Shown here piece after piece: positions 14,396-47,693 of a DNA stretch of 64,000 bases. Each line of letters opens with the position of its first letter. The stretch's first letter is position 1. Both the position numbers and the translations under genes were made by a program. The stretch covers positions 1-64,000 of the forward strand of contig MNCI01001632.1 in the NCBI GenBank assembly GCA_015680685.1, given 5' to 3'. The notes under the pieces are model-generated. The model saw only the letters and a list, made by a program, of their open reading frames with translations. It did no database searches and had not been told where the DNA came from. This DNA is from Gnetum montanum (taxonomy: Eukaryota; Plantae; Gnetophyta).

Positions 14396-17300
14396 ATCAA
14401 GGTTGCTATAATGTTTGAAGTGTCAAAATTAACAAAAATCTTAACATTGATGCAAGTTTTGGCAAAAGTAAAGGCATAAAGTGGGGTCCACAATCAAAAA
14501 ATTTAAAATTTTGAAAACTAGATTTTTTTCCATCCAAAACCAATGTGAACTAGAGTTTCCCCCTTTTTCCTTAATGGACTTATAGTTATGGTGCACTGAA
14601 TTGGTAGTTGGGGTTTCATTTAGGTTTTAAAAGGGCTTTATATGTTAGATTTTGTAATTTTTAATCTTAACTATCATTCTCTAGAAATAGTGAATTGGAG
14701 GAGAGCTCTCATAGAGATTCTTGTGACAGCCACAACTACTCTTCAGCATGGAAGCTTCCCATCTCCCTTGTAGCCAACATAGAACTCTTATTTTTTCCTA
14801 ATTTTCATCTTCCTCAATGTTGAGCCTACCATGGCACCCAAACAAAGAGGAGGAAAGAGAAAAAATCCTATAATTTAGATAATGGATGAGTGTTCAAGGG
14901 AGTTTTCAAAGGTTTGTAGGCTTATCTCTATCCACACCTCATTGTCACTACTCCAAGGTAAGCAATTATACCTATTTTTGCCTTTGTTTTTTGTGATTTT
15001 TCTAGTTTTTTGCTTTCTAGATGTTGAGGTTGTTCTTTTAGATAGACCACTATAGAGGAATTAAAGTGGAATTTTGATGAAATCCCATCCCTTATTTTGG
15101 TTGCCCCCATGCAGATCTATAGTTTTTTTTTATCACTTTAGCCTTTTTACATTAGATTTTGAAAATAGGGCTTGCTATTTTATGTTTTATTTTCTCAAAA
15201 TTTTGGTGTATGTCCATTTTTTTTAGTTCTAGGCCTTAGGATTTGTTAAAATTAAATTTTAACAAAATCCTACCCCATTATTTTGATGTTAATTTAATTG
15301 GTTTTTAATGGTTTTGGATATTTCAACCATTTTAATGGCTATGTGAAATTTAGGCTTTGCAATTTTTGAAGTTTTGCTATGAAAAAGCAAGCAAGGTTGT
15401 GTATTTGTTTCTTGGTGAAATAGCTATACATTTGTAAAATTAAATGTTATGGGTTTGTATCCCTTTGTTTAATCTTTTTATGGTTGTTTTCTCATTTAAT
15501 TTTTCTTTGAAATGACAAAGTTATGGATGTTGTCCTATCGTTGCATAGTTAGGTTGTTTATGCTAATTTTATAATTTCATGTAGATTTATGAAATTTTTA
15601 TAAGAAAATGGTAAAAAGTTTTGCTATTTTTTGGTCATGGTTACATAGGCTTCAGCTTCAGCTTTCGAATGAAGTGAAATCACTCCAATTGGACTTAAAA
15701 TGAGTTTTTATGAATTTTTTAGTATGGCTATGTGAACCAAGGCAAAACACATAGTTGTAGTACATGACCCAAAATAGAAGTTGTTGATATGCTTAATTTT
15801 TCTTTTTTAAAAAGAGTAAAAGTTTTTTCTATTTTAAATAAGTTTATACTATGTTTTCATGGATTTTTCTAAGTTTATCATAGTTTTTCTAAATTTGTGC
15901 ATAGTTTAGATGTTTTTTTTTCCAAATTTATACATTCTTTCCATAATTTAGATGATTTTTCTAAATTTATGCTTGATTTTTCCGAAATTATGCATAATTT
16001 AGATGATTTTTCTAAATTTATGCATAATTTAGACTAAGATATAGTTTTGGCTATAAAGGCTATAAAACATGGTAATAATGCTTTTATGGAATTTCTCAAG
16101 CTAATTTAGATAAACATCTAAGAGCTCTTTCCAAAAGCTAATTTTACCTCTAACTTATGAAGTTTTTTCTAAATTTGTAAAGAAATTCAAATTGTTCAAG
16201 ATTTAAGGATAATGTAAGTTTTCAATAATGTTTTCTTGTTTAATTACTTAGACTAATTTAATAAAACACCTTACAACCTTTTACATAGGCTAATTTCACC
16301 TTCTACTAGCTATTTTGTCTAAATTTTCTAAGTAATACTAATAGGCCACAATGTTTTTACATTGAAAGGTTGTAATAGTGCCTTTTTGTATAATTCCTTA
16401 ATCCAATTTAGATAAATATCTTAGAGCTTTTTACAAAGGCTAATTTCACCTCCAACTAAATATTTTGTCTAAACTTGCTAAGTAACTCCAATTGGTTATA
16501 ATGTTTTTGTTTGGTTTCATACAGGGTCTTCTTGAGGCCTATTATCATCATAGTGGAGTTGGTTGACATTTTTTGCTACGTTGGTCATCCAAATACCAAT
16601 AATCCATCACAACATGCCTTTTGGGAAGCTCTCATTGTAATTTTGGCCTAGGGCAAGGGACTTCCTTGCCTACCTCTTTAGGAACTTTAGTGTGATGTTG
16701 TGGTCACACTTGTTCATGGATGTAGTTAGGGTTGTTGTGGAGACCTTATTGCCTTAAGCATCTAGACTAATTAGTAGGTATATTATTGATAAGCTACCAC
16801 CTAAGATTGCATGGGGACCAGTAGAGGTCATAAGTTCACACTACCTTATGGAGATCTAGTCAATGCTAGAGTATAGTCAATATAATGCTAATAATACTCT
16901 GAAGGTGGCACATAGAGCCCACACATTATTCCAAAATCCACCTAGCACCCTGTATCATCTACAAGGGTAAACATGATTATTGTAATTTTTTTATGATTTT
17001 TGCTTAATTACCTTACTTAACATCATTAATTTAACTTCTTGTAGGTACAAGGTTAATGATCAAGGCTTGATCATTAATGATCAAATTTTGGTAGTGCCTT
17101 AAATTGATTTGGATGAATTCACCAAGAGTTTCCAAATTAGAGCTATTGTGTATCAACAGTTAAGAGGATACTTTAATGAATACACCCATTGGTTTAACCT
17201 TATATACAAAAAGTGTAAGGATGATGCAATGATGCATAGCTGGTGGGTAGATACCAGTAACATAGATCAAACCCTTGTAGCTGGAACCTCTGCACTATAG

Positions 17301-18451
17301 AAGAAAAGTAAAGGTGAACATATAGCTTCTAGTGTTTTATGGTTCTAAGTGTTTTATTGCTTTTCTTGGTTGTTCAAATTATTCATATTACTTCTAACCT
17401 TTGGTTATTACTTTGTAGGACCTTCCACCTTAGCTGATGTAACTATACCACTTTTGCATTTGCGTCATGAGTATACCCTCATCCTAAAGTTTGATGACCT
17501 AACATTAGTATAGGAGTGGCTAAAGGGACAAGTGCCTAGATATGTTCAAGAAAACATCTAGCATGCTAGTTTGCTCAATGTATTTATGGGACCTATTCCT
17601 TCCATTCTTACTACAAAGATGTTGTATGTTATCAACTCCTTTGATGAGGAGGGTGGTAGCTTTAGCACCAACATTAGTAGTGTTATAGTGTGCATTGATG
17701 TAGGTGTTAGCCTCTTTCATGATCTGTTTAGTGTCATTGCTGATGGGACCAAGGTTCCCACCAGGACATTGAGGGAATCAAGTCATCACGAGGAAGTTCT
17801 AAAGTGGCTTGGTGCCAGCACGGGCCACTTTGAAATTTTGATGGATAGCTTTATGACTCCTAATGTAAAGGAATCATATCCTTTGTTTTGTTCTTGTGCA
17901 TTCCCCAAAATGCTATCACAAAAGAAGGTAATTGGCCTAGCACAAGGATGGATCTCTAAGAAGGTCTTAATCAATGACATCAAATTTGGCTACTAGGCTT
18001 TGATAGGAAATCGTTAGACTTTGTGTTGACACCTCTAGAATAATCCATATGCACTTTGCATTTTTCATATGTTATCTAAAGAGGTTTGCAAAGATTCTAG
18101 TGGTGTATAGGAATGGATGATGGGTTTCCAAAGGCCTAAGCCAACTTTCTAGGCCTTGGATAAAGCACACTTATCCAATAGTGTAGGCCTAGAACTCACT
18201 AGAGGAAATGGATAAAACATTATCAATCATCACTAAGAATATTAATGTTAGAAAGTACAAGTTTCTTGATAATACTGATGATGATGAGCCACTTTTTTTT
18301 CCTACTAGTGTTTAGGATGTCAAATGATGGTGCATGAAGGTTGAAGGGATAACTAGAGAGAAATTCAAGAGGCCTATGGAGGAGGCACCCCCAACATCAA
18401 ATCAACGTACCCTAAAGAAGCTTAAGTTTAAGCTTAAGCCATCATAGTAGG

Positions 18452-19990
18452 TGTGACGATGGAAAACGTCGATCGTTGGAAATACCAAATAGAGTTCCAT
18501 GTACATAGTTCCAACCCTAGATCTGTGTGAGGGCCATGCTGAAGAAGATGAATTCGAGGTGCCCTGAACGGTCTTGTTGATCAGACAGGGACTTAATCAA
18601 TAAAATTTTGTAATAACCAGGTGGCAAAATGGTGATTTAAATGAGGAAATATGATATCGTTAATCCCAGAGGTAACGAGAGTGATGTAAATGATTCAAAG
18701 AGATTGCAAAAATCTATATAGATAGGATGCAATAAACTAGATTTAAAAAGTGTGCAATCCCAAGATCTGGGATTTAGCTTATGAACAAAATATGTTGGAT
18801 ACAATGATTATAGGCAGACTTCAGTTTATACGAAGCACGTGCCAAGAACAGGAAAGCTATTTAAAGATAAAACAAGCAAAGGTCGATCTACCTTGTTCTA
18901 GCCAATCTGGGCGCAAGGGAGTCAGACCCGAAACAGAATGTCCGCTAACTAACTATTTCTGATCAAAATTCTTGTCAATCATCTTCAATGTTCTTACAAT
19001 TGTCGATCCCCTTTTTGCTTTCTTATCAATCTTTGCCAAACGTTTTTGACAATTGCCAATGAAAGAAAATTGCTCACGGAGAAAATTTTTCCAATCAAGA
19101 TAATTTTTTTTTTTGCCAACCCCTTTTTGATCCTTGTCAACTGGAGTATTTATAAGGTTAGGGTTAGGAAAAAAATGTGGTTTAGATGATGCATGTCCTG
19201 AACCTACAAAATTCCGTTGACTTGATGTGTTTGTGTTTGAAGCTAGCAGCGCTATGCTACATTACACTCTGAAGCGTAATGTGTCATAAACTACTTTTGC
19301 TGGAGCTTTGGCAACAAACTGTTCTATGATTACACTGTAATACGCTAGAGAGTGTATTGTGATGTATGAACTACTGATGCCTGAATTGTGTTATCTCTAT
19401 TGTTACTTGTATTACGTTGTGTCATGCTACATTACGTTGCATAGAGTAATTCAACGTAAGATAGTGAACCTACAAAAAATTGAAGTGTTGTCGCTGTGCT
19501 TCCCTTGTTTTTGTTCAGTATTTCTAGGGTTTATTATGCTACACTACATAATGTAGTGTAATAGGCCCTTAGCCGAAAAAAGAAAACTTGCTGAGATGTG
19601 CGACATGTTGCAGATCTTTGCTTGAGCCTTGAGATTTTACTGAACCATTGAGATCTTCAAATTTTGCAATCTCCGTTGTTGTGACTAGATGGACTGTCTC
19701 CTTGTATTACGCTGTGTTACGCTACATTACAATGCATTGCATAACATGGCATAATCCGTTAAAAGTTAAAATTTTTGAAGCATAGCTAACTTACAAAGTT
19801 GAAGGCTTGCCATTGTGCACCCCTTGTCTTGTTCTATCCTCTGGAGTCTATTATGTTGCACTGCATAGTGTGGCGTAACAAACCCTTAGCCAAAAAGAGA
19901 ACTTGCTAAGCCACAACTTGTCATAAATCCTTGCCTGAGTTGCAAGATTTTGCTGAACTGTTGAGGCCTCGAAATTTGCATGGTGTTTCA
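18452..19990 (-). repeat. 3' LTR of B (1539 bp)
   Basis: Colinear with 36077-37622; differences are almost all transitions. Confidence 0.96.
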
Positions 19991-20005
19991 ATGGTCCCTC
20001 TTTGT
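19991..20005 (-). promoter_or_regulatory. Polypurine tract of B
   Basis: The - strand reads ACAAAGAGGGACCAT immediately before TGAAACACC; equivalent tracts at 7505 and 58013. Confidence 0.8.
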
Positions 20006-21210
20006 TGATGTTTAGAGGGCTTACCCAAAACATGTTTACAAAGAATATGAAACACTAGAGAGGTAAAAACACCAACAACATCCGTCAGCAACTGCTCAGA
20101 TGTTGCTCTATCAAACCTGGATGTGTGAAGGTAGGAGGAGGAGAATAGGAGGGATCTTAAAGAAGTGAGAGGAGGGAGGTTCGAGGAAGACTCATGCATG
20201 TGAATAGGAAACTTTCGCAAACAAGTTATTAGGCGTCCTTTCATGGGTGTGTTTGCGAGAGGTTACGTTGCTATACTGCATATGAAGGGCTTACATGGAT
20301 GAGTTGTGTTATGCCTGTATGGCCTGGATGAATTTTTTTACATCCATTTTTCCTAGCTTTTCCATTTTTCTTTGAGAGTGCAACTTACATTCCACGAGGC
20401 GAGTTGTGTTATGCCAGTTCATGGATATGATGGTGGGAAAGAATTGATTATATGCTCACATCCTATACAAACAAAGAAGAGGGTAAAGGCAGTTGTAAGG
20501 ATAAGGGAAGGAGGAAGTGAAGTAAGGTATCTGATGGAGGGAAAGGTAGGGTTTGCACTCCCAAGTAGTTAGGCTAGTCTGAGTAGCCACCTCAGAATGC
20601 CATGACACCTCACCTCCTAGTGAATGCATTCTCGATCAATCCCATCGTAGCAAGTAACTTGCAAAACATAATAGAGAACAAAGAGCAAAAGCAATCTTCC
20701 TAATCGCTAGGGAGGCTGTTGAAACAAGTGTCGTCCAAAGTGAAAAGGAGAGTGTAGGCCATAAAAAAGGGACCATAGCAAGAAGCAAGGGTCCCTATGT
20801 TGATGCCATGATTTATGAAGTTATCATCAACAGCCAGATTCATCTTGCTCAAATGATTGGACAAAGAACCAATCAGATGAATTTGCTAAGCTAGAGTCTA
20901 GTGGCAACAATGGGTGGAGGCCATCGAGGCTATGGATGACCATAGTTTCTTTGGGGTTCCAAGTAGTGAAGTTAACCCCAGGAGTTGCAAATACAGAGTG
21001 GCTATCATAGCAACATCTCCGAGGGGTCAGTAGTATGCCTTCCAGCTTATCCGAGGAATCAGTAGGATGCCAGTGGGGTAGAGGCATTGCGTCTATTCCA
21101 ACATCTTACCCATTCCATATGGTAGGGATGTAGTGCAAGAGTGATCATGATTACTTACTTCATGGATTTTCTATTGATGGATTCGAGTTTTGAGTCCTGG
21201 TTGACTGTTA

Positions 21211-21541
21211 TTGCTGGTTTTAGGTCTCAGAAGACCGTGGTCCCGGTTTAAAGTCTGGGTAGACTGAAGCCTGCTAGTTTTACATCATAGTAGACAGTGG
21301 AAGAGCTAGTTTACGGTCCTAGTAGACTATGTTGTGGGTGTCAATTTTACGTCGTGACCCAGGGACAAGTCTGTGCTAGTTTAACATCTTAGTAGACAGA
21401 TGCTTACCTTGCCAGTTTCACGTCATGGTGGACAGTCGAAAACTTTGCCAGTTTAGCGTCGTGGAAGACACATGCAAGAAATGCTAGTTTTACGTTGTAG
21501 CGGATGTGTACAACATTGCTAGTTTTACATCGTAGCAGACA
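21211..21541 (-). repeat. Hairpin-motif array (10 copies, variable spacers) after the INT stop of B
   Basis: + strand consensus GCYAGTTTWA-NGTC-N6-GACN', with 7-13 nt variable spacers. Confidence 0.85.
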
Positions 21542-21573
21542 TTTTCTACCTTGTGTTTGAGCCGAGTCGACGT

Positions 21574-24500
21574 TTAGATGTGGTACCTCTTTGGATACAT
21601 ATGATTCATTGGGTTCAGGTGTTCGTTGTCGTTGATGTCTGCTAGCCTAAATGCTCCATTTCCATATGCGTTGACAACCAGGAAAGGGCCTTCCCAACTC
21701 ATAGAGAATTTTTTCGCTGGTTCATGGATGGCTTTGAGAACCAAGTCTCCTTTCTTGATTGGTCATTGATGCAAGTTGTGATGATGCTTTTGTTTCTACC
21801 TATCTTGATACCTTTCGATGGTGTTGAGCATCTGGATGCGTTTCACCTCTACTGAGTCTAAATCCACGATCTTAGACTCTTTGTGTTGATTCTCACTTAT
21901 AACCATGGAGAGGACCATCCAAAATGAGGGAATCTATAGTTCCAGGGGCAACCCTGCTTCAGATCCGTAGACTAGGCTGTAGGGTGTCCTATCGGTAGCT
22001 GTTCTGCATGTCATATGATAGGCCCATAGCACATAGAGGATTTTTTCATGCCATCATTTTTTGTTGCTGCTGAGCATCTTCCTGAGTAGATTGATAACCA
22101 CCTTGTTTGTTGCTTCTTCTTGACCATTTGCTTGTAGGTAATAGGATGAGGAAAAAGATTACTTGATACCAAGGTTGTTGCAAAAAGATTTGGTTTTAGT
22201 GCTACTAAATTGTGGCCCATTGTTGGTCACAATAGTCATGGGAAGCCCAAACCTGGCTACTATATTTTCCAAGATAAAATAGCAAACCTATTGAGATGTA
22301 ATCTTTTGTAGGAGAATAGCCTCAACCCACTTCATGGAATACTCGGTGGTGGTGATGATGAAGCTATGTCCTGCGGAAGACTTAGGCGTGATAGGACCTA
22401 TGATGTCTAGTCCCCATTGTTCGAATGGCTAAGTGATCTGTGTAGTATGCAATTCAGTTGGTGACACGTGTATTAGATTTGCGTAACGTTGGCATGTGTT
22501 ACATGTCTTAACCTTGGTGAGGAAATCTCATTCCATGTATGGCCAGTAATACCCTAAGCATCTGATTTTAGCGGCCATGGCTTGTGGGGCTATATGTCCC
22601 CCACATAGTGCTTCATCAACTTTACTAACTATTCATTGTGCTTGGTCATTATTAATGTAGGTTAGCAATACTCCATCAAAAGACTGTCTACAGAGAGTAC
22701 TATCTCCAATGATGACATATTGCCGAGCAATCTTGCAGATTGCATCTTTTTGTGTAGGTGTTAGCTCATGCAATGGTTCGCCATGCAAAAAGTAGGCTTT
22801 AATGTTATCGTACCATTCTAGTGTTCCACCCATGCTTAGAGAAGAAATTTGCGCCACTTGAATGACAGGCTCTGTACATTGCATCATTAAAGTGGGCCAA
22901 GTGACAAACAAATGTGGTGGCATATTTAAGGCCAGTGTGGCTAGTGCATCAGCTATAGCATTTTCATTATGCGACACGTGTTGGACATCAGTTTTCATGA
23001 ATTATTTCAGGAGATCTTTAGCCATATCACAATAGGGATGCAAATGCATAGCTTTGCATGCATAGACCCCTATGATTTGATTAATGATGAGCATTGAATT
23101 ACCTTGGATTTCCAGGTGTTGAACATTGAGTTCCCTGGCTATTAACAATCCCCTGAGGAGCCCCTCGTACTCTGCCACATTGTTCGTACAAGGGAATTCT
23201 AGGCGGTAAGCTAATGGATGAACATCCTCAGGGGAATGCGTAATGATAGCGGCAGCAGTGCCACCTTTGGTAGTCGAAGCTCCATCAAAGTATAACATTG
23301 CTTTGAGGCTTGTCAATATAGGGCTTAAACTACATATTTGTTCATTAGGAAACTCAGGCTCTATTGCGGCTTGATTGTTAATCGGTGATGTTGCAAGCTG
23401 GTCGGCTATCACTTGGCCTTTCATGGAAGATTGGCTAACGTAGTGCAAGTCAAATTCTTCTTTCTAGTAGGCTATCCTATTACTTTCATATAAATTTTTT
23501 GTGATGGCCTGTAGAATGTTTTTTTTACAGATTATATTGACCTGGCTACGGAAAAGATAGTTCCTACATTCCTTGAGTGCAAACACCAATGCTAAACAGT
23601 TACGCTCTACTTCATTGTACCATGTTTTGTATGCAAATAGAGCATGACTTAGGTAGTAGATAGGAACTTCTGACCCATCATCCCTTCTTTGGCACAACAA
23701 CACAGCTATAGACACCTCTAAGTTTGCCAAGTATATGTAGAAAGGCTGATCCCTTTGTGAGGAGAAAATCATTTGCAAATGTAATAGCTCTTTCTTCATA
23801 TTGTCAAATGCACATTGGAAGTTCTTGGTCCATTCGAAGTTAACCCCTTTCTTGAGCAAATGTTGCATAGGGTGTAACTTATCTGTTAATCTTGAGATGA
23901 ACCACCTGATAAATTGCAACCTACCCTATAGCCCATGTAGTTCTTTGAGGTTTGTAGGTGGTGTTAGATTAATGATGGATTTAACCTTATCGGGGTCGAC
24001 TCGAATGCCATTCTCTAATACCACAAACCCCAACATGCACCCATTTTTGACTCCTAATACGCACTTTCTTGGGTTGAGCTATAGGTCATTTTTGATACAT
24101 CGTTAAAGGATTATCTCTAGGTCTTTCGAGTGATCTTCTGACTTCTTAGATTTGATAGCAATGTCATCTACGTAGTCATTCAATCCCTCTAAGAGGTAAT
24201 CACTAAAGATGTAAGTCATGACGCATTGATGGGTTGCTCTAGAGTTTTTTAATCCGAAGGGCATCATGGTGTAACAAAAAGTTCCCCAGGGGATCATGAA
24301 AGTCGTAGTCAGTTGGTGTCCTTGCTTGATACAGATTTGATTATAGCCTGAACACCCATCCATAAAGGATAGTAACACGTGGTCGGCTGTTGGATCGATA
24401 AGTTGGTCAATACTCGGTAATGGAAAGTTTTCTTCAATCGTGGCCTTGTTCAGATCGTGGAAGTCTATACAGATGCATATTCCTCCCATTTTCTTAGAGA

Positions 24501-25044
24501 CAACTATGATGTTCGACACCTAATCTGAATAATCAACTGCATGAATGAAACTAGCCTAATATAGCTTAGTGATTTCATCACACACTGCTAACCCGATTTT
24601 GAGCTTAATCTTCTAGGATTTCTGTTTAAATGCTTTCATATGCGATTCTAAAACTATGTTGTGCTATATTAGCCTTGGGTCTAAACCTGGCATATCTTCG
24701 TATGACCATGCGAACACCGTAATGTTATCTTGTAGCACTCGAGATATATCACTCTGCGTTTGTTGGTCAAGGAGAGAACTAACTTTTAGAGTTTTACTTT
24801 CTCCTTTGTGCGTAACCATAGGGACCTCAGTGAGGGAATCCTCAGTCACATCACCAGCTTCCAGGTCTAGGGTTTGGGCCAAATATTCTAGCTAGTCTGG
24901 AAATACTTCCGATGTTGCAATGGTTATACCACAAAGGGAAGCGTCAGTTCCTATCAATGTGTGATTGAGCTATCTAATACTTTCCCCGTATGGGCCTGTT
25001 AAGGCTAGGGGTGCAAGTAAAGCTACATCCATTTGTGAATTGAC
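21574..25044 (-). pseudogene. pol: pol of B (RT-RH-aRH-INT)
   Basis: YVDD at 24163-24174; FPLPSIDQLID; SGYNQI; RH PIYYLSH; aRH YFDGAS...CTNNVAEYEGL; INT FEQWGLDIIGP and EYSMKWVEA; GPY/F-like WEGPF; stop at 21574-21576. Confidence 0.95.
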
Positions 25045-25062
25045 CTGCAAAAATGCCAAAAA
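25045..25062 (-). promoter_or_regulatory. Putative 3' splice acceptor for the pol exon of B
   Basis: The - strand reads TTTTTGGCATTTTTGCAG|GTC AAT TCA CAA ATG, in frame with RT. Equivalent AG|G sites lie at 11242 (A) and 63789 (D). Confidence 0.75.
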
Positions 25063-25622
25063 TGGAGGTTGTTACATTTTTTTTGTTGACCTATTGAAAT
25101 GATAGAAGGTTTTCTTTTTTTAGTGGTACGTGTTAAAGAGCTGCAAATTTAAGATCCTAGCAGACCGTTACCATATGCGTGATTTGTGAGAAAGCAGTAA
25201 GCCAAATTTCCTAGATGTTAGTGTAAGACTTCTATGCACTATAGTAGGGAGTGTAACGTGGCATGTATAACATGTCGAGACAACTAATTTTTAATTTTTT
25301 GCATATCATAGTTAATGTGACTGGATTACGAGACCATGAGCTACATGTTAGTTTAGGGTCTTTTCGGACCGTAATCTATACAATATCTACAAGATTAATG
25401 TTGCGATCTTCATGCTTCATGTCACATTGACATACCTATGTCTCGAGAAAATTCCACATTGGTCAGGCACGCAATAGTTAGTTTCAACCAATTCATTTAT
25501 AAGTCAGTGATTCATCCTCAAAGTAGACTAGAGATATTGCGAATTTGAATTAGGATATAGCAGAAGGAAAGCAAAAGTAAGGCATGAGCAGAAGATTTTG
25601 CAAAGGTTGTTTAGTCATGACC

Positions 25623-30170: not shown

Positions 30171-30289
30171 CATGGTGATATTAGCCTAAACATCTTGTTG
30201 TAATGAAAAGGAATAAAGAATAGAGTTCTTGGATCAATTTGATTGTAAGAAAAAAAATTGGAAGAAAGTGTATCATTAGAAAGGTTACG

Positions 30290-35480: not shown

Positions 35481-36038
35481 GCCATCAGCATTTGATCTAG
35501 GATCCACTATTGTTGATCTATCAAGGATACAATGGTGTTTGGCAAAGGACTAAATTCCTTCCCATTGCAGTATATGAACTCGTATTCTCGTTTCTCTTTG
35601 ATTTCTTGTGGGTACATGGGAAGATTTGCTACAAGTTTAGCACAGAGGAAATTGTAATGTTCCCTATGCTGAGCATGTCCCTTAGGCTCCTTGTTTTGGA
35701 GCCTGAGGGATTAGCGTGGTCACACTGAACTGGTTGGTGGTTTGACCATAGGAGGCGTAGCTTGCAAAGTCCAAGGATTCTCGAGGTTGGCAATGTTAAC
35801 AACGGTGGTTGATGTAGCCATTCTCTATGCAGTTCAAAAGTAATGATGACAAGAATAAAGATCACAAGGGAAAAGGTAAACTAAGGTGAGAATTGGGCTT
35901 TCTACCCTACAGGATTCCAAAGGAATCATCAAAGCGACCGATCTACATCACACAATCTCGTAAAAAACCACGGAGGTATTATGTTTACGTCAATCGATAA
36001 TGGGTACTGACAGCTTACAGGACTACCCATAAAGTGTG

Positions 36039-36067
36039 GATCAGAGGTTCAGGCCCTCCTTCTAGCG
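36039..36067 (-). promoter_or_regulatory. Primer-binding site of B, tRNA-Asn type, extended
   Basis: The + strand gatcagaggttcaggccctccttctagcg resembles the 3' part of plant tRNA-Asn(GTT) as recalled; it lies 9 nt from the LTR. Confidence 0.8.
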
Positions 36068-36076
36068 TAGGAAAAT

Positions 36077-37622
36077 TGTAACAATGGAAAATGTTGGTCA
36101 CTGGAAATACCGAGCAGAGTTCCATGTACACAGTTCCAACCCTGGATCCGTGCGAGGGCTGTGCTGAAGAAGACAAATCCGAGGTGCACTGAATGGTCTT
36201 TTTGATTAGACAGGGACTTACTTAATCAGTAAAATTTTATAATAACTAGGTGGCAAAATGATGATTTAAATGAGGAAATATGATATCCTTAATCCCAGAG
36301 GTAACGAGAGCGATGTAAACGATTCAAAGATATTGCAAAAATCTATATAGATAGGATGCAATAAACTGAATTTAAAAAGCGTGCAATCCTGAGATCTAGG
36401 ATTTAGCTTATAAAAGAAATATGTTGGATACAATGATTACAGGTGGAATTTGGTTTAAATGAAGTGCATGCTAAGAACAGGAAAGCTATTTAAAGATAAA
36501 ACAAGCAAAGGTCGATTTACCTTATTCTAGCCAATCTGTGCGCAAGGGAGTCACACCCGAAGTAGAATGTCTGCTAAGTAGCTATTTCTGATCAAAATTC
36601 TTGTTAATCACCTTCGATGTTCTTACGATTATCGATCCCCTTTTTTCTTTCTTATAAATCTTTGCCAAAAGTTGTCGACAATTGCCAATGAAAGAAAATT
36701 GCTCACGGAGAAAATTTTGCCAATCGAGAGAAATTTTAAATTTTTTGCCAACCCCCTTTTGATCCTTGTTAACTGGAGTATTTATAAGGTTAGGGTTAGG
36801 AGAAAAATTTTGTTTAGATGACATGTGTCCTGAAACTACAAAATGTCGTTGACTTCATGTGTTTGTGTTTGAAGCTTGCGGCACTACACTGCATTACGCT
36901 CTGAAGCGTAATTTGTCGTAATCTACTTTTGCTAGAGCTTTGGCAACAAACTATTCTATGGTTACACTGTAATACGCTAAAGAGCGTATTGTGACATATG
37001 AACTGTTGATCCCTAAATTCTGTTATCTTTGTTGTTTCTTGTATTACGTTGTGTCATGCTACATTACGTTGCATAGAGTAATTCAACATAAGATAATGAA
37101 CCTACAAAAAATTAAAGTGTTGTCATCATGCTTCCCTTGTAACTTTTCAGTCTTTCTGGGGTTTATTATGCTACACTGCATAATGTAGCGTAATAGGCCC
37201 TTAGCTAAAAAAGGAAAACTTGCTGAGATGTGCAACATGTTGTAGATCTTTGCTTGAGCCTTGAGATTTTTCTAAACCATTGAGGTCTTTAAATTTTGCA
37301 ATCTTCGTTGTTGCGAATAGATGGACTATCTCCTTGTATTATGCTATGTTACGCAACATTACGCTACGTTGCGTAACACGGCAAAATACGCTAAAAGTTA
37401 AAATTTTCGAAACATAGCTAACTTGCAAAGTTGAAGGCTTTCCATTGCGCACCCCTTGTCTTGTTCTATCCTTCAGAGTCTATTACGTTGCACTGCATAG
37501 TGTGGTGTAATAGACCCTTAGCTAAAAAGAGAACTTGCTAAGCCACGACTTGTCACAAATCCTTGCCTGAGTCGCAAGATTTTGCTAAATCGTTGAGGCC
37601 TCAGAATTTGCACAGTGTTTCA
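36077..37622 (-). repeat. 5' LTR of B (1546 bp)
   Basis: Colinear with 18452-19990. Confidence 0.96.
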
Positions 37623-38914
37623 GTAGGTATTCATAGGTATGCTTTATTTAATTTTTAGTATTTCATGTTCTAAATTTTATGGCTACAATATGATTTTATG
37701 TGTTAACTAGTTTTCTATGTGCTATGCTTGTAGATAAGTATCAGGTTATAGTAGCCGAAGCTACTACAGAGGTAGAACAAAGGCATGCAGAAGAGACACT
37801 TCTAAAGCAACCTATGTTTGAAGGACTTGTTAATGCTAGTGTAGATAATCTAAATGTCTTGTTTGATGAACTGGTATTAGGTATCTCTTCCATCATCATC
37901 CTAGAGGAGGAAGAGGAGGAGGAACCAGGGACACCTATGCCTCACTATGTTTTCCATATTTCATTAGCTCTCTTTGGTCATCATCATAACCTTTCAATGA
38001 TTGTTATGCTTACAGTAGTTCCTGAGTCACCAATGGAAGCTTCCATCCCTAAGTTTCATGTGAAACCATGGGTAGAGACTCTAGACAAAGTGGAGTTCCT
38101 ACTTGGGATGGCTAATGAAATCATCAATCAATTGCATTAGGTTGCAGTTAAGATAGGTAAGGATTTTATTTTATGTGCTTTGGTCATAGGCTTTGTTTGC
38201 ATTATGTTCATTTTAGGTTTTGTCTTATGATTGTATTTTATTCTTTATGTAGTATTGTTAGTGGAGTTTGACTCTAGTAGAGAGATGGAGGTAGACTCCT
38301 TGCCTAGACTTGTCTCTTATGTTTTTAGTATACTTATGAAGTTGTATGATACTACCACTGATTTGGAAATGTCATGTGCAAAAGCTTCATGCAAGCTAGA
38401 GAGGTCCAATGAATTTCTATGGAAGGAAATTATGGCTTTAATGGAAAAGGCTTAAAGGAAGGAGGATATGATTTAGTATCTCTAAGACTATAAAGCCTTT
38501 GTAAAAGGCCAAGTTGCTAACTTAAGGGAGTTATGGACCAAGGAGATCAGTTAGGCCCACTATTGGCATGTCATTCAAGACAAAGTAGCAATCCTATAGG
38601 AGATGGTAGAGTGACAAATGTAGATGGGCCTCATCTTCCAAAATGTTGAGGACTAGACTACACTTGAGTTCTGGAGTGGGGCAAGACACAAAAGGTCTAG
38701 AAGCATCAATATAAGGTCAATCATGGGGCCTACCTAAAATGTCTTAAGGAAGATTTGATTGAATGAAACAAGAGAGATCTATTCATTTAGAGGATCTAGG
38801 TAGAGAGTTCTTATCAACTTTCTGAATGTACTCTCAAGGTGAAGCAATCCCCTACTCTTCATATCACCACAATTGTAGGTGAGACCTCTACAACTGATGC
38901 TACTCATGAGCCTC

Positions 38915-39748
38915 TGATGAGTGGCGAGGTACCCCCTACATCCAACCATACGAATATGAGTGTGTATGCATGATCCGATTGAACTCTGTGGATGCGCTAA
39001 TCATGAGTTTTAAGATAGTTATTGTGCTTCTTTATTCATTTTCTTCCCACATTAGACTAGTGGAGGCTTTGTCACGTATGGTTTAGTCTAAAGTGAGGTG
39101 TATGATATAATGTTTTAACGTTACTCCTACTATGGAATGATAATAAAGGGTTGATTAACTAAAGGTATGAAATAAATCCTACATTTAACCTAAGGTGATG
39201 AGTATCCAAACCTGATTGTCCATATGCACCTTGGGCTTCACATAGTTGCTGCTGGGATTACCAAACACTAATTGCTACTGGGTTACTAGACAATATGCTT
39301 ATGTGTTTGCAATTGGTCATACTCATTTTGCTTAATGACAAGGAACATAAATAACATTAATTGGAAATAGTAATAAATAAATACATTGAAATTTTAATAT
39401 AAGAAAATCACAAATGCAAAGTGGATGCTGCAATGATGTAAATGATCTCAATCTTTATTATCGAACATGTAATGTGCCCAAGTACATTGCATGTGAATAA
39501 GGACATTGTGCAACCATAAACATCACACTGCAGGCATACACTAGAATTGAAATTGAAAAACTTCTAACTAACTTTATCTATCTTCTATTTCTACCTATCT
39601 ATCTATGTATCTCCCCCCTATAACACCATGCACCCCATGTGATATTTATAGGTGAGAATGGTAGAAACAACATTGGATATCTGACATCGCTTATTGACCC
39701 TGATATCGAAGCCCCAATATTGCTTCTAATGTGGATGATGACTCATCA
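38915..39748 (-). repeat. 3' LTR of C
   Basis: Colinear with 46225-47064. Confidence 0.93.
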
Positions 39749-39920
39749 TATCCCCACAACTAAATGAAAACTCATCCTTGAGTTTCATACAAAATGGTGA
39801 AAGGTATGGGATTATTGAATAACAAGATAATCATTGCATCACAATGGTGTTTTATTGCAATAGAATGATGACACATTACAAGAATCAAAATTAGAAACAA
39901 AAAAAAGGATGATGGAGCCA

Positions 39921-42736
39921 CTACATTGTGCTAGGAGGTGGTGGCTCTTCCATAATCTCTTTTCCTTTGCCTTTATCTACTAGTTTCAGAGGCTTGTAAT
40001 GATGTAGTAGTGATTGAAATTTCTCCTCCTCTATCTTGGGATCATGCACAGTTCATGCAGATGATCTGATGTGTAAGGAAACTAGCACATCCCATGGACA
40101 CAACAATTGCAAAAAAATTTGATTAGCTTTTACATACCAAGTCACAAACTGTTATCTCTCCTCTTCAAATGCCTTGGCCTTATCCTTTAACTCTTGAAAA
40201 TCAATGAAGCATTTGGCTAGGTCTACAACTACATCTTTCTATCCATGGTATCTTGCCTTAACCACCTCCAATTCTATAGTTGCAACCACTAGCTTGTTAA
40301 GAGATGCTTTGCAGTCAACAACCTCCTTTTCATACAACGCGTATGTGGCAACTACCTACCTCTCGAGCTCATTGCATGGGCACCCTACTATCAACATGGC
40401 CAAGTTAGCCTATCAAAGATTGGCCAACTCCATGTATTCTTTCAGATCAGCAATCTATAGATCCTGGCTTTTAACCTCCACCTAGTGGGTAAGGGCATAT
40501 GTATCCAAGATGTTTCTCCAATTCGATTTTTGGGCCACAAAGAAATCTATCTAGAAATTTTCCATCAGGATTTCTTTTTCAATGACTTATTTGCACATTC
40601 CCACCTAGTCATGGAAGTGCTCTTGGAGGTGCTCATTCTTTCTAGCCTTGTTCTACCACATGCTTATTTCAATGACCAACTTTTGTCAGATAGCATGTAC
40701 CTCCTCCATAGAGAGGGTTCTATTTTCTTAGGTGAGGCAACTCATGTCATGGTTAACATGCACCAACTACTCTCTTAGCTAGTGGACACTTTCTTCTAGC
40801 CAATTCTTTTGTTTCTCAATGGTGGTCAAGATATTTTTTGCTGCAATTAACTTTTTATTTTCTTTTTGTAGGGTAGTAAGGGCCTTGAGTTGCGCATGTG
40901 TTTGCGCTTCTGTGATGGAAGCATCCCATACCACTTTCTATCTTTCCAGTGCCAAGGTTTTATTCATTTCTTAGTTTAGAAAGCCTCCATTATCTTAGGT
41001 GGGATCAATAAAGATGTATCCCACCTTTCCACCCTTAAGGTTGCAAGCTCTTGATGAAGCCTTTGGGCTTTTGCTTCTGCGTGCTCAACCCTGTGCTCGA
41101 CGATGAGAAGCTTTCCTCTAGTTGAAATCACTTTGGACTATGCTGTAGTGACATCGTTGGGGATGTTTAACAAGGAGGTCATTACCTACCCTATCTGTAG
41201 CGGTCTATCTAGCATATCCTTGTGTTCAGCCAGAGTCATGATAGGATCAACCAATGCTTGCGCATCCCATGTGCCTGTGAGATCTATTGGTGGTATAACA
41301 AGGACATTAAAGGATTCTTTAATGTGATCCTTGATAATTTCTATTGCAAATACTACATCTTGGTCTTGCATGACTACAATTGTAGGCCCTTCACCAGTTT
41401 CAAGTAGTACTTGAAATGATGCAATGTTCCCAAAGATCTGTTGTAACCACTAGGCCTCTCGTCTGAACTGGAGTGAAACCTACCCTGTGGAATGAGTAGT
41501 AGACATCATGGGTTGGATTGCATCATCAAGAAATTGAAAGAGACTTGACTCATTAGGTGTTCTCTAGCTCATAAGCTCTGAGATCCATCAAAGATGACTA
41601 AGTGTGGGCTTATAATCATAAACTGGTGGCTGCTGCTGAGGTGGTTGAGATGATAGTGGTGGTTGTTTAGAATATGGTCTGTGGCTAGGTCTTGTTTCCT
41701 ACTGCTACTTGGCCTACACCAACTAGTGCCTAAGCTATTTGATTTGTTTCTCTAGTTGGGTAATGTATCTCTACTTTGGTTGCTGCTCTTGTTGTTCTTC
41801 TTCCTCTCTGAGATCTTTTCTCGGAGGCATTGGTTTGAGTAGTTTTGCAAAAGAAGCATTTTGAGCTTTGTGGGATATATCATTGGTATAACCAAGGATT
41901 CCAACACATTGACACAATTTCTAGATTAGATAGGGGAATTTCAAAGTGAGCTTCCCTGTCTTTGCCTCTTCAAACTACTACTTGATCTCCATTAAGTATA
42001 GTTGGGGGATGTTGGCTTGAAATTTTCTCATTAACATAGCACATCATGGAGTTGCATAGGTGGATAAAATATTGAGCCCCTTCATTGGAAACAAATGATA
42101 TGTCCCAATTTTAAAATAGGTATGCTATTCTATGCTCAATTCATTGTATGACTTATTCTTTTCATGAAAAGCATGTTTTAACCATAGCTTATGACTCTGT
42201 AGATCAAGTCGAGTTGATAGAACCAGCAATCGTGCTCCAATATTTGGAAAATTTAGGGCTTTAGTGATTGCCTAGATAGAATTAGAGACTGTGTCCCCAC
42301 CAATTCTTACAGTCATACCTTCTTCTTTACCATGCAAAAAATAATAAGTCTTCCCAAGGTACCATTTTGCATTTTCAGAGAAAATTGGCCAAAATGGAAA
42401 TGCTTGCAACTATGTCCTCACTGACTAAGGGGAAAACTCCATGAATGGCCCAAAGTTCATTTTCATGATGATCAAGGCTAATGTGGGACATTCCTAAATG
42501 TAAACAAGGCATTTCGGTGACAACATGAGTCATTTTCCTTGCACTTAATGTGTTGCCTTTTCCTACATAGGTTGAGCTTTAGCAGGGACTTATGTAGGGA
42601 CTTCTTGATGGATGCTAAATGACTATGCCTCCTACTTAATTGGTGGCCCTTGCTAGCCAGTTTGACCTTAGTTTCCCTAAGGGCGTTTGCTTGGTCCTTG
42701 TGATGGATCACCTTCGGTTGCTTGTTTGGGGGCCAT
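39921..42736 (-). pseudogene. Athila-type accessory ('env-like'/plant transposon protein) ORF of C, ~940 codons
   Basis: ttgtag|ATG MAPKQATEGDPSQGPSKR...; VRIGGDTV...AITKALNFP; LKFPYLI*KLCQCVGI; Q/P-rich linker; coiled-coil C-terminal half; many stops. Confidence 0.7.
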
Positions 42737-43729
42737 CTACAATCACACAAAACATTAGGTTACTAAAGGATCCTTGTATTGATCATGTTACACATTTATA
42801 CCTTAGTCAACCTTAAGTGTACATTATAGCTATGTTAGATTTCAGAGTTAAGGGCTTACTTTTTTATTCAAAATGGCCTAATAAGGTAGTTAAGGCACTT
42901 AGGAATATGTAAAAAGTATCTTTGGTATGGTGGGCAACATTTATTTACTTATTTAGCTTTGATTTTACTTAGTGTATTCATTTTTTACACTTAGAATACC
43001 TTTTGGGTGATAGCGATTTTTGAAAAAAAAAATGTGACATTAGGTGGACACAATAACCACCATCCCACCAAAAAGAAGAAAAGAGTAATAGGAAGTGTGG
43101 AAGGACCTTAGTTAGAGGGAACCTTCAAGCATAACCAGTGCTTGTCTTTCTAGTTCCATAACTAGTGCTTGTAGCCCATACTCCATTATTACATCTAAGG
43201 GGTCTACTTTGAATTTTCATTAGTTCTCTCTCTCTTTTTGCTACATTTTTTTTCTTTTTGGATGGAAACCACACCATGCAAAGACTTATTTGACTCAGTC
43301 AACTTCCTGGTGGTGTTCGACGGTCGAATGATGGAAAATGAATGACAACATCCACATGCCCAAGAGAATAAAGCTACACAAGCACATCAAATCCTCTTGA
43401 AGTCACACCCTTTTCAATTCCTTTGAATCCTTCTTCAGGGTGGAGGATGCCAAGCCAAAAATTCATTATAGTTTGATTAGAAAAGGGCTCCATCCTTCCA
43501 AAATAGAGGGAAACCATAGAATTAAGTGAATGGATGGATGATGTGGAATCACCATTCACACAGTTAAACATTTATGATAGAAACAACATAGAAACAAATC
43601 CCCACCCCAAGTGGACCAAAGTAAAGCTCACGTATTGATCGAGAACACTTAGGAATGGTAAACAAAATAAATCAAAACAAAAAATGAAAATAAAAGAAAA
43701 CAAAACAAAAGTAAAAGGGGGATTAGTTC

Positions 43730-46100
43730 ATGGTTAGAAAGGAAGGTAGCCCCAAGGACTATGCATTGGAGGGTGATACAAACTAGCAAAAGGGTCCATG
43801 CATTATGGATACATGGTATAGGGCTTGCTTCCTTGTGGTGTCATACACATGGTATAAGGGTTGGGTTGGTATGCCAGTGTGGAAGATGGGGTAGCTTGAA
43901 ACGTTCTTGGAATCCAATTAAGGTCATGAAAACTTGATGGAATGCATGGATTATATTTTCTTGGCATAAAATTAGAATCCACAATAATGATCAAAATAGA
44001 ACTAGAGACAATAGGTGACTTTAGTATATGTATAGAAGGTGGTAGATCCAAAGGAAGGGATATGTCACTAGATTGCCCTTGTGCAATAATAGTAGATATA
44101 GTGTGTGATGCTTGGCCTTTACATTTTTTGGTGCATATCGTCCTGAAGAATGGATGTTTGTGTGGCTGTAAAGGATTTTCACTAGATTGATCATTGGTAC
44201 GTACAATTTCTGCATGAGTAGCTACTTGTGGTTGTAAAGGATGTTATGCTGAACCCTTTGGAATGGATGATGACATGTGAAGGGGAAAAACATGAGAGCT
44301 TGGGAAAGATGGCAGAGGATACGCAGCATGCGGTGTTGATGACATGGTAGATGGGATGTAGTGATGGTGTTCTAGTGAGTGGTACACATGCTATGAAGAA
44401 GAAGAAGATGAATGAAAACTTGTCAGTGAAACAGGCTGTTGAACTTAGTACTCACATGAGTACGAATGGTGATATGGCTACCAAGTGGGTGATTGCCTCC
44501 CCCATGACTGTGGTGGTTGCCACTGTAGTTGAGGTTGACCATAAGGTTGAGGATGGTTCTTACCCACATGGTTATAGGATGGACGTTAATCATGTGGATG
44601 AAAAGGTATTCTTCTAGGCTTATGTTGGCATAAGAACTTCAAATTTAGCACAGAAGCCCAATGCTCCTATAGATGTGACAATATCAGGCATCGACCCTTT
44701 AGATGATCATAAAGGCAAAGGTCACATTCCTCATCTGTGTTTTTAGTGGAGCTATTTGCCTTGTTTTCAATAGCAATGTGTTTTTCTTGTTGGCCTTTCA
44801 TCTCACTTGTTTTGCAATTTGTTCCTTTATGTTGAGATTCTTCACCGAGGCTGTGTTGTGCCACACTCACTTTAGTAGGCTTATGATATGATGAAGCACT
44901 ATCCTAAAGCCATGTAGACATTCTATTCAACCTTGCATGGAATTCATCAATCAGTTATTATATTGGCAACAGATGTTGGGACATCTCCCTATGGAAAGTT
45001 GCCTTATCCTAGTCAATGATGGTTTCTATTACAAACATTGATTCCCATTGGTGGTTTTCCAAACTTTTTTTTTACACAACTCCACTTATTCTTTAGCAAC
45101 CCATTGAATTAGCCTTAAAATCTAATAGCCTTCTAATTCATGTAATTGACCCTTAGCATGTGTTCCAAGGGTCTCTAGTGTTTGAGTCCGAAGCCCATCT
45201 ATGATGTGGTGAAGTTGTTCTTCCTTGGAGAAGCCATGGCCTGGACATTTATGCAATAAAGAGTAATAATAGTCCAGGGCCAAATCGAAGGGGTCATATT
45301 CTATTTTTTGCCACTCTTGGACCTATTTCTGTAACTAGGACACTCTAGTGTAAGTTTGGTACTTGTTGTTGTACAATTCTAACATCGTGGACTAATGCTT
45401 AATAGAATTTGGTTTTAGTGACTAATACCACATGGTAGCTTGATCAATGAGTGTCCAGGGGAAGAGTTTTAACTTCTAGCACATGTTGTCAATGTCTTGT
45501 AAGATGCATGCATCATGGAAGGCTTTCAAATGATGTTATGGATCAGAATTATGGCCTCCTCTAAACCTAGGGATATACTCCATTTTGATTCATTTGATAC
45601 AGCTATCTTGTTGATGCTTTTTGGGGATTCTAACAGCCTCCTGAATGTTTTCTAAGCTTCAAGTCGATAACAATGGTTCACTTTCTCCATCAAACATCGT
45701 CATGTATGGACGTTGAGTTGCATGAGTTTGATAACCCTGTAGGTAGTTGTGATGATGATATGAGTATTGCATTCTTCAACATCTATCATCGTGGTTTATG
45801 TGGAAATCATACCTATATCAGACATCATCCAAACAAGATGTTGCAAAGGAAGATGAAGTGAGACTAGGAGAAGGGTTATGGGTCCTATGGTTCTCCAATT
45901 AATCCCATGATGTATCATGACTTTGTGCTTGGAAGTTTCTAGGCTTGGAAATTATTCCAACTTTAGGATGATCACTCTCTTCGACAAAAGTTTCTGAGTC
46001 TATTGAATATAGTTGTGAAACACTATTTGAAAAGATTTGAATCCATTCAGATGGTTACTCACTCCATTCCATGTAACTATATATAACTATTGGATAAATT
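43730..46100 (-). pseudogene. gag: gag of C
   Basis: IPRFRGGHNSDP*HHLKAF...KLFPWTLIDQATMWY*SLKPNSI at 45400-45600; CDLCLYDH..GRC at ~44700. Boundaries approximate. Confidence 0.75.
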
Positions 46101-46205
46101 ACTAATGTCACATGCACAAGACATGTTGGAGATGCATGTGTGACTTGTTACTCCTTGTTGAAAGATAGAGCATGGACATAGTGCCATCTTAGATAATAAG
46201 CATCA

Positions 46206-46224
46206 TCCCTAGCAATGGTGCCAA
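46206..46224 (-). promoter_or_regulatory. PBS of C (tRNA-Asp type)
   Basis: TTGGCACCATTGCTAGGGA directly after the 5' LTR. Confidence 0.85.
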
Positions 46225-47064
46225 TGATGAGCAGTGAGGTACCCCTACACCCAGCCATAAGAATACGAGTGTGTACATGCAATCTAGTCAAACTTCATGG
46301 AATCATAAGTTCTAAGATAGTTATTGTGCTTCATTGTTTGTTGTCTTCCCATGTCAGACTAGTGGAAGATTTGTCATGTATGGTTTAGTTCAAAGTGAGG
46401 TGTATGATGTAATGCTTTAACACTACTCCTACTATGGAACGATAATAAAGGGTTGATTAACTAAAGGTATGAAATAAATCCTACATTTAACCTAAGGTGA
46501 TGAGTATCTGAACCCGATTGTCCATACACACCTTGGGATTCATGTAGTTGATGCTGGGATTACCAAATGCTAATCACTACTAGGTTACCAAACAATACGC
46601 TTATGTGTTCACAATTCGTTCTACTCATTCTACTTAATGATGAGGAACATAAATAACATTAATTAGAAACAAAAATCAATAAAGACATTGAAATTTTAAT
46701 TTAAGAAAATAAAAAATGCAAAGTGGATGCTGTAATGATGTAAATGATCATGATCTTTATTGCCAAACATGTAATGTGCCCAAGTACATTGCACTCAAAT
46801 AAGGATGTCATGCAACCATAAACATCACATTAGGGGCATACACTAGAACTGAAATTGGAAAACTTCTAACTAACTCTATCTATCTTCTATCTCTACCTAT
46901 TTGTCTATGTATCTCCCCCCTCTCACACCATGCACTCCATGTGATATTTATAGGTGAGCATGGCAGAAATGACATAAGATATATGACATTGGTTACTAAC
47001 CCCAATATTGGATCCATGATATAAAAGCCCCAATATTTATTCTGACGTGAATGATGACTCATCA
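46225..47064 (-). repeat. 5' LTR of C
   Basis: Colinear with 38915-39748. Confidence 0.93.
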
Positions 47065-47693
47065 ACCTTCTACTTGAACTTATATAGAAAGATTTGGCAT
47101 TCTTTTTGACATTGATCTTAGGAATGTTGACTAGGTTAACATGATAGAGTCCCAGATCCTCCATTGTTTGGAGGAAGGCCTTTCCCATCTATCCCCAAAA
47201 GTGATGGAGCTGAACTCTCCATAGGTTTGATATATTTTGTGTTTTAGTCTTTATTTTAAGTCATGATTTTGGGTATGGGTTACTAACTTGCTATATGTTG
47301 TTGTATTTTAGGCCTCAAGAGACATTGGAGGGCCTAGTGGTGAGGGTGGAAATGACCCACCACTTCCTCATCAAAAGGCTACTTAGCAGCCTCCTTCAAT
47401 TTAGCTTGTTGGCTATTTGTTTTTATTTTCATGTTCATAGCTATGATTAGCCAAAACTATGTTATTGATGGTTATTCTTTGGAATCATTGCTACTCATTG
47501 TGGTTATGGCTATATATGTTATGGAAATTTAATTTTAAATTTAACTATTTGATTTTATTTCTTAGTTATATGCATCTATAATGATAAATGCTATAAATGG
47601 CTATATTGATGTTTTTGGGTTATAAAATCAAATGGCTAATCGATGTGATAATAGGCTAAGAAAAGAAAGATATAATAATAAAAGGAATTTTTG

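Follow-up and report, generated by a model that had tools for sequence, protein, structure and literature searches.

An old antisense gene with predicted introns between protease and reverse transcriptase in Tat retrotransposons of Gnetum montanum

Background

Whether a long terminal repeat (LTR) retrotransposon can keep a gene with many introns over very long periods is the question raised by a 64,000-nucleotide stretch of DNA from the gnetophyte Gnetum montanum (GenBank assembly GCA_015680685.1, contig MNCI01001632.1, positions 1 to 64,000 of the forward strand; hereafter the window). Two elements of the Ty3/gypsy Tat lineage, A and B, both on the minus strand, each carry between protease (PR) and reverse transcriptase (RT) a gene on the plus strand, opposite to the sense of the element; B and a third element, C, are nested in A. 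An earlier reading of the window, made from its sequence alone, had proposed that A and B hold the same antisense gene in the same place with the same introns. Our analyses lead us to assign a probability of about 0.6 to the view that this Tat clade carries an old, eight-exon antisense gene whose product is likely a nuclear, non-catalytic regulator of the element.

Two descriptions of related elements bear on this question. In Ogre elements, a spliced intron with a mean length of 274 bp separates GAG-PROT from RT (PMC6317226, in part; sources so marked are cited for the portion of their text available to us). For gene23 of Grande, an own promoter and a nuclear product have been shown, and the 2020 review reporting this calls for a search for such antisense and spliced transcripts (PMC7264820).

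Results

A homologous antisense gene in two elements

In both elements the end of the protease frame is followed by a tandem array, the plus-strand gene and the start of RT. The gene of B (25623..30170) runs from an ATG at 25623 to a stop at 30170, with an AATAAA at 30212, and is predicted to comprise eight exons (25623-25726, 26279-26728, 26816-27090, 27202-28245, 28348-28554, 28698-28835, 28920-29740 and 29820-30170) that total 3,390 nt or 1,130 codons with no frameshift. Its decayed counterpart in A (14831..47386, about 1,030 codons, likewise eight predicted exons) has its ATG at 14831 and its stop at 47386, both correctly placed by the sequence-only reading, and an AATAAA at 47677. Exons 1 to 4 of A lie at 14831-14957, 16525-16966, 17045-17313 and 17419-18451 plus 37628-37636, the last split by the insertion of B; exons 5 to 8 lie at 37734-37928 (or -37880), 38016-38156, 38253-38914 plus 47070-47224, split by C, and 47312-47386. 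The model of A contains three frameshifts detected by alignment, and a further one is needed in exon 1 to hold the phase. A candidate B intron at 27462-27528 was dropped because A aligns through it in frame.

The two genes are homologous. When the B protein was aligned blindly, allowing for splicing, to the DNA of A with B and C skipped, the score was 751, against 52.5 on the reverse strand and 59.5-76 for all eight shuffles, with 266 identities over 921 codons. The reciprocal alignment scored 789.5, against 65.5 on the reverse strand and 71-80.5 in five of five shuffles. Searches of the window with B frames by tblastn found regions of A at E=2e-45 and 1e-15, and the spacer of A is the only place in the whole window that the B protein matches. 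Taken alone, exons 1, 5 and 8 show no significant A-B similarity (p 0.09, 0.44 and 0.35). All the peptide pairs that had led to the proposal of a shared gene are present on the plus strand at matching places: FQNPP (A 16929, B 26691), KCK (17211, 26982), HASLLNVF and NLWEARLMQLF (17562, 27327), DKVEFLLGMANEI and DKFAFMEGIAKDM (38084, 28763), NEFLWKE and NEALWKR (38408, 29075), YWHVI and YWTVI (38561, 29228), and ILHCLEEGL and IMQCLWVGL (47156, 29675).

Exon-intron structure

The introns, too, were proposed to be the same, and the two models agree with this. Intron phases of 2,2,1,1,1,1,0 fit all seven introns in both models, including the phases of 2 and 1 noticed earlier after exons 2 and 3, while recovery by the blind aligner in both directions was limited to introns 2 and 6. 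From B protein to A DNA, introns were placed after B residues 184 (phase 2), 625 (phase 1) and 739 (phase 1), those of B itself lying after 184, 624 and 739; the acceptor of intron 3 was found with a different donor, and intron 5 was seven codons off and in phase 0. The reciprocal run placed introns 2 and 6 of B exactly, together with the donor of intron 5, and misplaced introns 1, 3 and 4. Two of seven introns were hence recovered blindly both ways, three of seven at least one way (intron 4 being added), and all seven are consistent in the manual models, on which introns 1, 3, 5 and 7 partly rest; for introns 1 and 7, which adjoin exons without significant similarity, the basis is splice signals together with the residues on either side.

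Predicted donors are GT in 13 of 14 cases and acceptors AG in all 14. For A's intron 5 there are two candidate donors, a non-canonical GG at 37929 and a GT at 37881, with phase 1 either way. Exon lengths agree between A and B within 12 nt for exons 2-7, and intron GC content is 21-37% vs 45% in B exons. As the sequence-only reading had observed, the introns themselves align poorly (A-B z from -1.4 to 1.8 for five of six short introns, 2.5 for the other). In both copies, read-through from the exon into intron 2 meets a TAA stop, and the unspliced frame is therefore closed.

Age, selection and abundance

The A and B gene proteins are 29% identical overall (23-35% per exon), compared with 52-55% for RT and integrase and, by tblastn, 45-60% for gag and 38-48% for the PR region. 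Identity at the three codon positions is 46/57/33% over 919 codons of the gene and 66/75/41% over 1,151 codons of pol, so that third positions are near saturation and first and second positions are conserved; different codons encode 153 of 264 identical residues. The protein-guided alignment somewhat favours such a pattern, but this cannot account for one that spans 919 codons in an alignment scoring ten times the null. The frame of the B model holds 21 internal stops, vs 49 and 99 in the other two frames, and this load over 1,129 codons equals that of B pol (21 in 1,160 codons); the gene was therefore as intact as pol when B inserted, and both have decayed alike.

The A-B identity from RT to the additional RNase H (aRH), 55%, is about that between the matches from the water-lily Victoria and from Prunus (53%), with decay after insertion inflating the A-B distance. 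A, B and two further pol sequences of the window, D and E, form one clade with a support of 1.0, B branching first, separate from the database matches and at most 43% identical to them, in a midpoint-rooted RT tree that holds 31 of 120 listed matches, without labelled reference elements or gymnosperm Tat J/K sequences. The stretch was found in DNA runs under four organism labels from three studies, and one run yielded 35,421 contigs over all 30 bins of B's spacer, exons 2 and 7 being the deepest. The gene belongs to a very abundant, high-copy family and is a trait of that family, not a single capture. As it occupies the same slot in two elements whose RT regions are only 55% identical, the gene is old and selected; this, the codon-position pattern and the copy number together support, at the level of sequence comparison, an old accessory gene under purifying selection within the element lineage, as the earlier reading had held against a chance capture.

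The PR-RT spacer as a putative intron

The spacer covers 11242..48338 in A (about 9.8 kb without B and C) and 25045..30851 in B (5.8 kb), both on the minus strand, and may be read in each as an intron in element sense. In A, B and E alike, a pyrimidine-rich tract and a YAG immediately precede the RT frame (ttttacctAG at 11243-11242 in A, tttttgcAG at 25046-25045 in B), and the similarity between A and E starts about 30 nt upstream of this acceptor-like YAG. In B, a weak candidate donor at 30851 would hold PR and RT in frame; the donor of A is uncertain. The longest stop-free stretch on the minus strand of the B spacer, 227 codons, lies opposite exon 7. Judged by these signals, the slot is probably an enlarged Ogre-type intron.

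Element E (pol at 59204-63821, same clade) retains the acceptor before RT at about 63,790, and a third gene copy may lie in its spacer, which extends beyond the window.

The encoded protein

Exon 2 (26279..26728 in B, 16525-16966 in A), the most conserved exon at 35% identity, resembles the FCP1/NIF group of HAD proteins. It scores 19.9 bits with Pfam NIF PF03031 (cut-off 21.8, E=6e-4). A HMMER search of 1.84 billion representatives with 452 profile positions, from exon 2 to the middle of exon 4, returned two matches. The credible one is the NIF-family protein P0002 (E=9e-4; 130 aa aligned at 24% identity); the other, P0001, is a repetitive protein from an alga without NIF or related family match, which we set aside as a repeat artefact. 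With a predicted structure of exon 2 (predicted local distance difference test, pLDDT, 52), HAD and C-terminal domain (CTD) phosphatases top both fold lists, all matches being weak (CTDNEP1, SCP1, UBLCP1, TIM50, Fcp1 and other HAD proteins; best E 0.07, Z 5.3); the model is not independent of the sequence search, as P0002 is in its alignment. Sequence and model together suggest that exon 2 is likely a divergent NIF/FCP1-like member of the HAD group. It shares with the NIF domains of FCP1, SCP, CTDNEP1 and TIM50 the strand-helix pattern and the spacing of motifs, and differs from them in its score below the cut-off and its residues. HAD catalytic motifs are defined by DxDx(T/V) and the aspartates of motif IV. 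These are mostly absent in A and B, which read ELVDI and DIVGV at motif I and KVAHR and FVACH at the motif-IV position, respectively, which suggests a pseudo-phosphatase.

Exon 4 (27202..28245 in B, 17419-18451 in A) is predicted to encode a helical domain with a basic C-terminal end, 28% identical between A and B. It has no Pfam match, and PMD-containing P0047 does not match it. The nearest Atlas clusters (scores 0.85-0.88), of plant hypothetical proteins and, at 0.85, one with 23% DUF1985, offer no more than a lead, exon 4 of A finding no match there. Its structure model (pLDDT 33) is unusable and the viral fold search made with it uninformative. Exons 7-8 (28920..30170 in B) form a conserved region, 28% identical to A and without family match, that ends in an acidic tail with 51 D/E in 116 residues and 48-bp repeats in B. 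Weak hits of exons 5-8 to NRN1, Peptidase_M8, YchJ and Jiraiya (Pfam; exon 7 also NCBIfam) fell below cut-off, were not common to both copies and were rejected. Word-index protein searches gave no match for exon 2 (longer proteins only) or exon 4 (136-436 aa only), sequence searches of the PDB gave nothing meaningful, and none of 416 pattern matches in a metagenome scan was confirmed. The A protein begins with a basic MAPKQRGGKRK, whose RGGKRK resembles RGGKRKL, the nuclear signal predicted for the antisense open reading frame (aORF) of sunflower Athila (PMC11728184, in part).

A 12-bp motif and its tandem arrays

Behind the AATAAA of the A gene lies a plus-strand tandem array (47695..48120) with a 29-bp unit containing YAGTTTWAGGYC, and B carries at 30276..30739, on the same strand, an array of an 85-bp unit with the same motif. 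The window has 34 matches to YAGTTTWAGGYC vs 2.6 expected, 31 of them on one strand. Their positions correspond among A, B and E: the arrays that follow the gene, the stretch ahead of the RT acceptor and the 3' untranslated regions (UTRs) (7641-7700, 11435-11475, 21215-21318, 25349, 30316-30690, 47695-48079 and 59009-59139), all regions that otherwise barely align among the elements. This distribution makes YAGTTTWAGGYC a candidate cis-element acting on DNA or on element RNA.

RNA evidence and points against the model

Five RNA runs were available to us; their sampling is shallow and their reads come mostly from diverged copies, with 217, 89, 628 and 24 reads on 12.7 kb and 362, 89 and 116 on 6.1 kb. 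The joints listed all fall within the tandem array (three of three on 12.7 kb; 15 on 6.1 kb, with 263 more unlisted). The strand bias of run X11 over exon 7 fits the direction of the gene, but pol is biased likewise and 25 molecules start at one place, and we discarded the bias as proof of a promoter. The run index lists no RNA run bearing the stretch.

Several observations weigh against the gene and protein as modelled. No read among the joints listed from the five runs is spliced at any of the seven antisense introns or at the PR-RT intron, and reads extend into introns 6 and 7. Ten of the 14 intron lengths are divisible by three (P=0.004). Of all observations, the missing junction reads and these lengths tell most against splicing as modelled. 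The sense donor of B is weak and that of A degenerate, and the readable gene copies number two. On the protein side, the NIF score lies under the Pfam cut-off, the fold model of exon 2 and its best matches are of the low quality given above, and the decayed translations of exon 4 have no Pfam match to PMD, Transposase_28 or Transposase_32. The sparse RNA data neither show nor exclude splicing.

The elements and the remainder of the window

The window is a pile of decayed LTR retrotransposons with a GC content of 27-45% and a CpG observed/expected ratio of 0.04-0.54; its source is a large, methylated plant genome. Self-alignment reveals three LTR pairs, those of A, B and C, all on the minus strand. 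Element A (5558..53039, about 20 kb net of B and C) sits in an AG microsatellite and has its LTRs at about 5558-7504 and 52140-53039, whose pieces are 73-84% identical (Kimura two-parameter distance, K2P, 0.15-0.19 over two alignable parts). Its pol (7750..11241, minus strand), with several frameshifts, encodes RT, RNase H (RH), aRH and integrase (INT) in the Pfam order RVT_1, RT_RNaseH, RVT_3, Integrase_H2C2 and rve; its gag and protease lie at 48338..50900 (minus strand), gag being broken by an inverted duplication (49196-50187). Element B (18452..37622, 19,171 bp), inserted in the end of A's exon 4, has LTRs at 18452-19990 and 36077-37622 (88% identity, K2P 0.127, target-site duplication (TSD) GTAGG), a pol in a single frame with the same domains by Pfam (21560..25044, minus strand), and gag and protease at 30851..34270 (minus strand; Pfam Retrotrans_gag and a protease-like reading frame). 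The best database match of its RT-aRH region is 41% identical, the best matches being plant pol proteins of Tat/Ogre type. A and B thus show the LTRs, gag and RT-RH-INT order of Ty3/gypsy Tat elements, with the TSD seen in B, together with an additional RNase H (RVT_3/RNase_H) between RT_RNaseH and integrase. This 'retroviral' structure 1 is known from cupressophytes, Ginkgo, gnetophytes, ferns and angiosperms (PMC10508981; PMC13468544, both in part).

Element C (38915..47064, minus strand, 8,150 bp), nested in A's exon 7, has LTRs of 83% identity (K2P 0.16) and gave in a six-frame Pfam search a gag match only, with no pol domain. A long decayed minus-strand frame begins MPPRKDLREEEEQQ near 41,830; C may thus be non-autonomous, with this frame as an accessory gene in sense orientation.

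Fragment D (pol, 53157-56441, same clade) has an interruption of about 500 bp (54704-55208) that resembles A's intron 1 (15540-15709, 73%) and is probably a small mobile insertion common to both. The pol of E is broken by a 1.1-kb TGT...TCA segment (60609-61735) with inverted similarity to the 5' UTR of B, which itself contains TTACGC/TGTTAC-rich repeats (34314-34803). The LTR of A holds 20-bp G-rich repeats (6587-7095), and its 5' UTR an exact 67-bp tandem duplication (51160-51294), of a perfection unexpected for an old element, that represents a recent event or an assembly slip. Near-perfect inverted duplications at 12609-13234 and 49196-50187, each delimited by single Ns (12875/13220 and 49631/50188), are probably assembly artefacts. 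A decayed plus-strand frame at 2000-3400 looks, by its motif, like another Ty3/gypsy RT-RH.

Discussion

A proposed mode of action

The homologous gene in one slot of A and B, with its codon pattern of purifying selection, is in our judgement highly probable, as is the strand logic by which its introns would be kept. The sense RNA of the element carries the gene as its reverse complement, on which the GT-AG introns read CT-AC; they would therefore be invisible to the spliceosome and pass untouched through reverse transcription, and for that reason a retroelement can hold a seven-intron gene. If the spacer is an Ogre-type intron, spliced RNA would join gag-PR to RT-RH-aRH-INT, stripping the cassette from the Gag-Pol message, and unspliced RNA would serve as the genome for reverse transcription.

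It is rather probable that a promoter within the element, located between its RT acceptor and the ATG, drives the gene, that the gene ends at the AATAAA before the tandem array, and that it encodes a protein of 1,030-1,130 aa. This protein would start with a basic N-terminus, followed by an FCP1/NIF-like HAD fold retained for binding and a helical domain, and finish with an acidic tail. More tentatively, this protein might bind the arrays of the 12-bp motif, and shield the element from silencing or aid RNA polymerase II (Pol II) in producing and processing its RNA of 18-20 kb, a suggestion that draws on analogy. A bolder speculation, which we regard as doubtful, is that the whole clade conceals such a seven-intron gene within the PR-RT intron and that the encoded pseudo-CTD-phosphatase docks on the element's own motif arrays and steers host Pol II, silencing or splicing.

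Alternative explanations

Multi-intron structure and flanking tandem arrays are typical of MULE- or CACTA-like DNA transposons, and the gene might be the domesticated remnant of one in the ancestral intron, an origin compatible with a regulatory role. The Atlas lead to the DUF1985 cluster points the same way, as does the relation between the PMD of Tat extra open reading frames (eORFs) and that of MULEs (PMC4408406, in part). No terminal inverted repeats surround the gene in A or B, however; the longest inverted pair in B is 36 nt at 78%, with one arm inside exon 3. The decayed exon translations match no transposase family in Pfam, and A, B and E all have the motif in their 3' UTRs as well. 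An ancient remnant could have lost both its repeats and its transposase, and we consider this origin improbable.

A working phosphatase, with the Pol II CTD or host defence proteins as possible substrates, would suit the rank of exon 2 as the most conserved exon, the first motif-I aspartate kept in B and the W-S of motif II kept in both copies. Both have valine at the second motif-I aspartate and no aspartate at motif IV, however, and A has glutamate at the first; as A and B have non-acidic residues in common, the loss seems to predate their divergence. We regard enzymatic activity as very unlikely.

Equally slight is the chance that the protein serves in structure or movement, as an env-like or particle-associated factor. 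Discussions of plant aORFs often consider an env-like role or one as chaperone of the particle (PMC7264820), and the C-terminal half lacks a family match; antisense orientation, basic N-terminus and acidic tail speak against it, and the unspliced frames owe their hydrophobic stretches to the T-rich introns.

The lengths that are multiples of three, the lack of spliced reads and the intron-retaining reads would all fit a gene of a few long ORFs in which the short 'introns' serve as variable linkers read in frame, not spliced as modelled. That account is hard to reconcile with GT-AG ends at aligned codons, AT-rich and unalignable introns, the common TAA in intron 2, four of 14 lengths that shift the frame, and a blind aligner that placed introns there unprompted, and we give it little credence.

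Finally, capture of gene fragments by transposable elements is frequent in gymnosperms (PMC13477047, in part), but a chance-captured host fragment carried neutrally is contradicted by the codon-position pattern. Against it also stand the retention of the entire frame over many exons since a split old enough for third positions to be nearly saturated, and the absence of a close host homologue among the 1.84 billion representatives; we hold it to be highly improbable.

Relation to known systems

Antisense accessory ORFs in Tat elements are already known; we did not find the PR-RT position, the conserved introns or the HAD domain described. Our literature search, which covered listings and the openings of abstracts, found no antisense multi-intron PR-RT gene and no FCP1/NIF domain in LTR elements; the supplements of PMC6317226 and PMC10508981 may list some. 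With Ogre, the elements share the order of PR, spacer and RT-RH-aRH-INT, the acceptor-like site before RT, tandem arrays and large size; they differ in a spacer of 5.8-9.8 kb with an antisense eight-exon gene, whereas the short Ogre spacer has no described gene in the available text (PMC6317226, in part). The aORFs of Retand, Grande (gene23), RIRE2 and PvRetro13, and the PMD eORFs of gymnosperm Tat lineage III, are likewise family-wide and antisense, evolve faster than pol and adjoin tandem repeats. They lie between pol and the 3' LTR (PMC11963269; PMC4408406, both in part), and not between PR and RT as here; they are described as ORFs, no introns being given for them in the available texts, that of PMC11963269 included; and their domains are Transposase_28, Smc or PMD, for which our decayed translations gave no match.

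The ALKBH5-like N6-methyladenosine (m6A) demethylase captured by a Tat element of an orchid is a parallel for a host enzyme domain fixed as an accessory gene (PMC9289625, in part). That capture is recent, catalytically active and of another fold, with Gag and Pol in one ORF, whereas the present gene has an old, divergent HAD fold in which most catalytic aspartates are missing. For the mode of action alone, two systems offer a model. VANC of VANDAL elements is a transposon-related protein acting at specific DNA motifs against silencing (PMC11728184; bioRxiv 2024.09.27.615353, both in part), and PMD proteins, which likewise work at DNA motifs, have a partner from a phosphatase family (bioRxiv 2024.09.27.615353; PMC7156037; PMC13547354, all in part), as MAIN/MAIL1 have in PP7L, PMD-phosphatase modules being known as well (PMC7156037, in part). 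Here, the motif arrays alone are known, the phosphatase-like domain is HAD/FCP1 and not PPP, and exon 4 has no PMD sequence match.

Conclusions

The Tat clade of this window offers a case in which a retroelement can keep a many-intron gene for a very long time. RT and PR are 6-10 kb apart in such elements, and annotation tools will split them. A recognisable FCP1/NIF-like domain and a candidate DNA motif make the function of the gene testable. Should the docking and steering reading prove true, the gene would be a plant retrotransposon counterpart of retroviral regulatory genes, derived from a host phosphatase fold; and as the family is abundant in its hosts, an anti-silencing role, if true, could bear on the expansion of large plant genomes.

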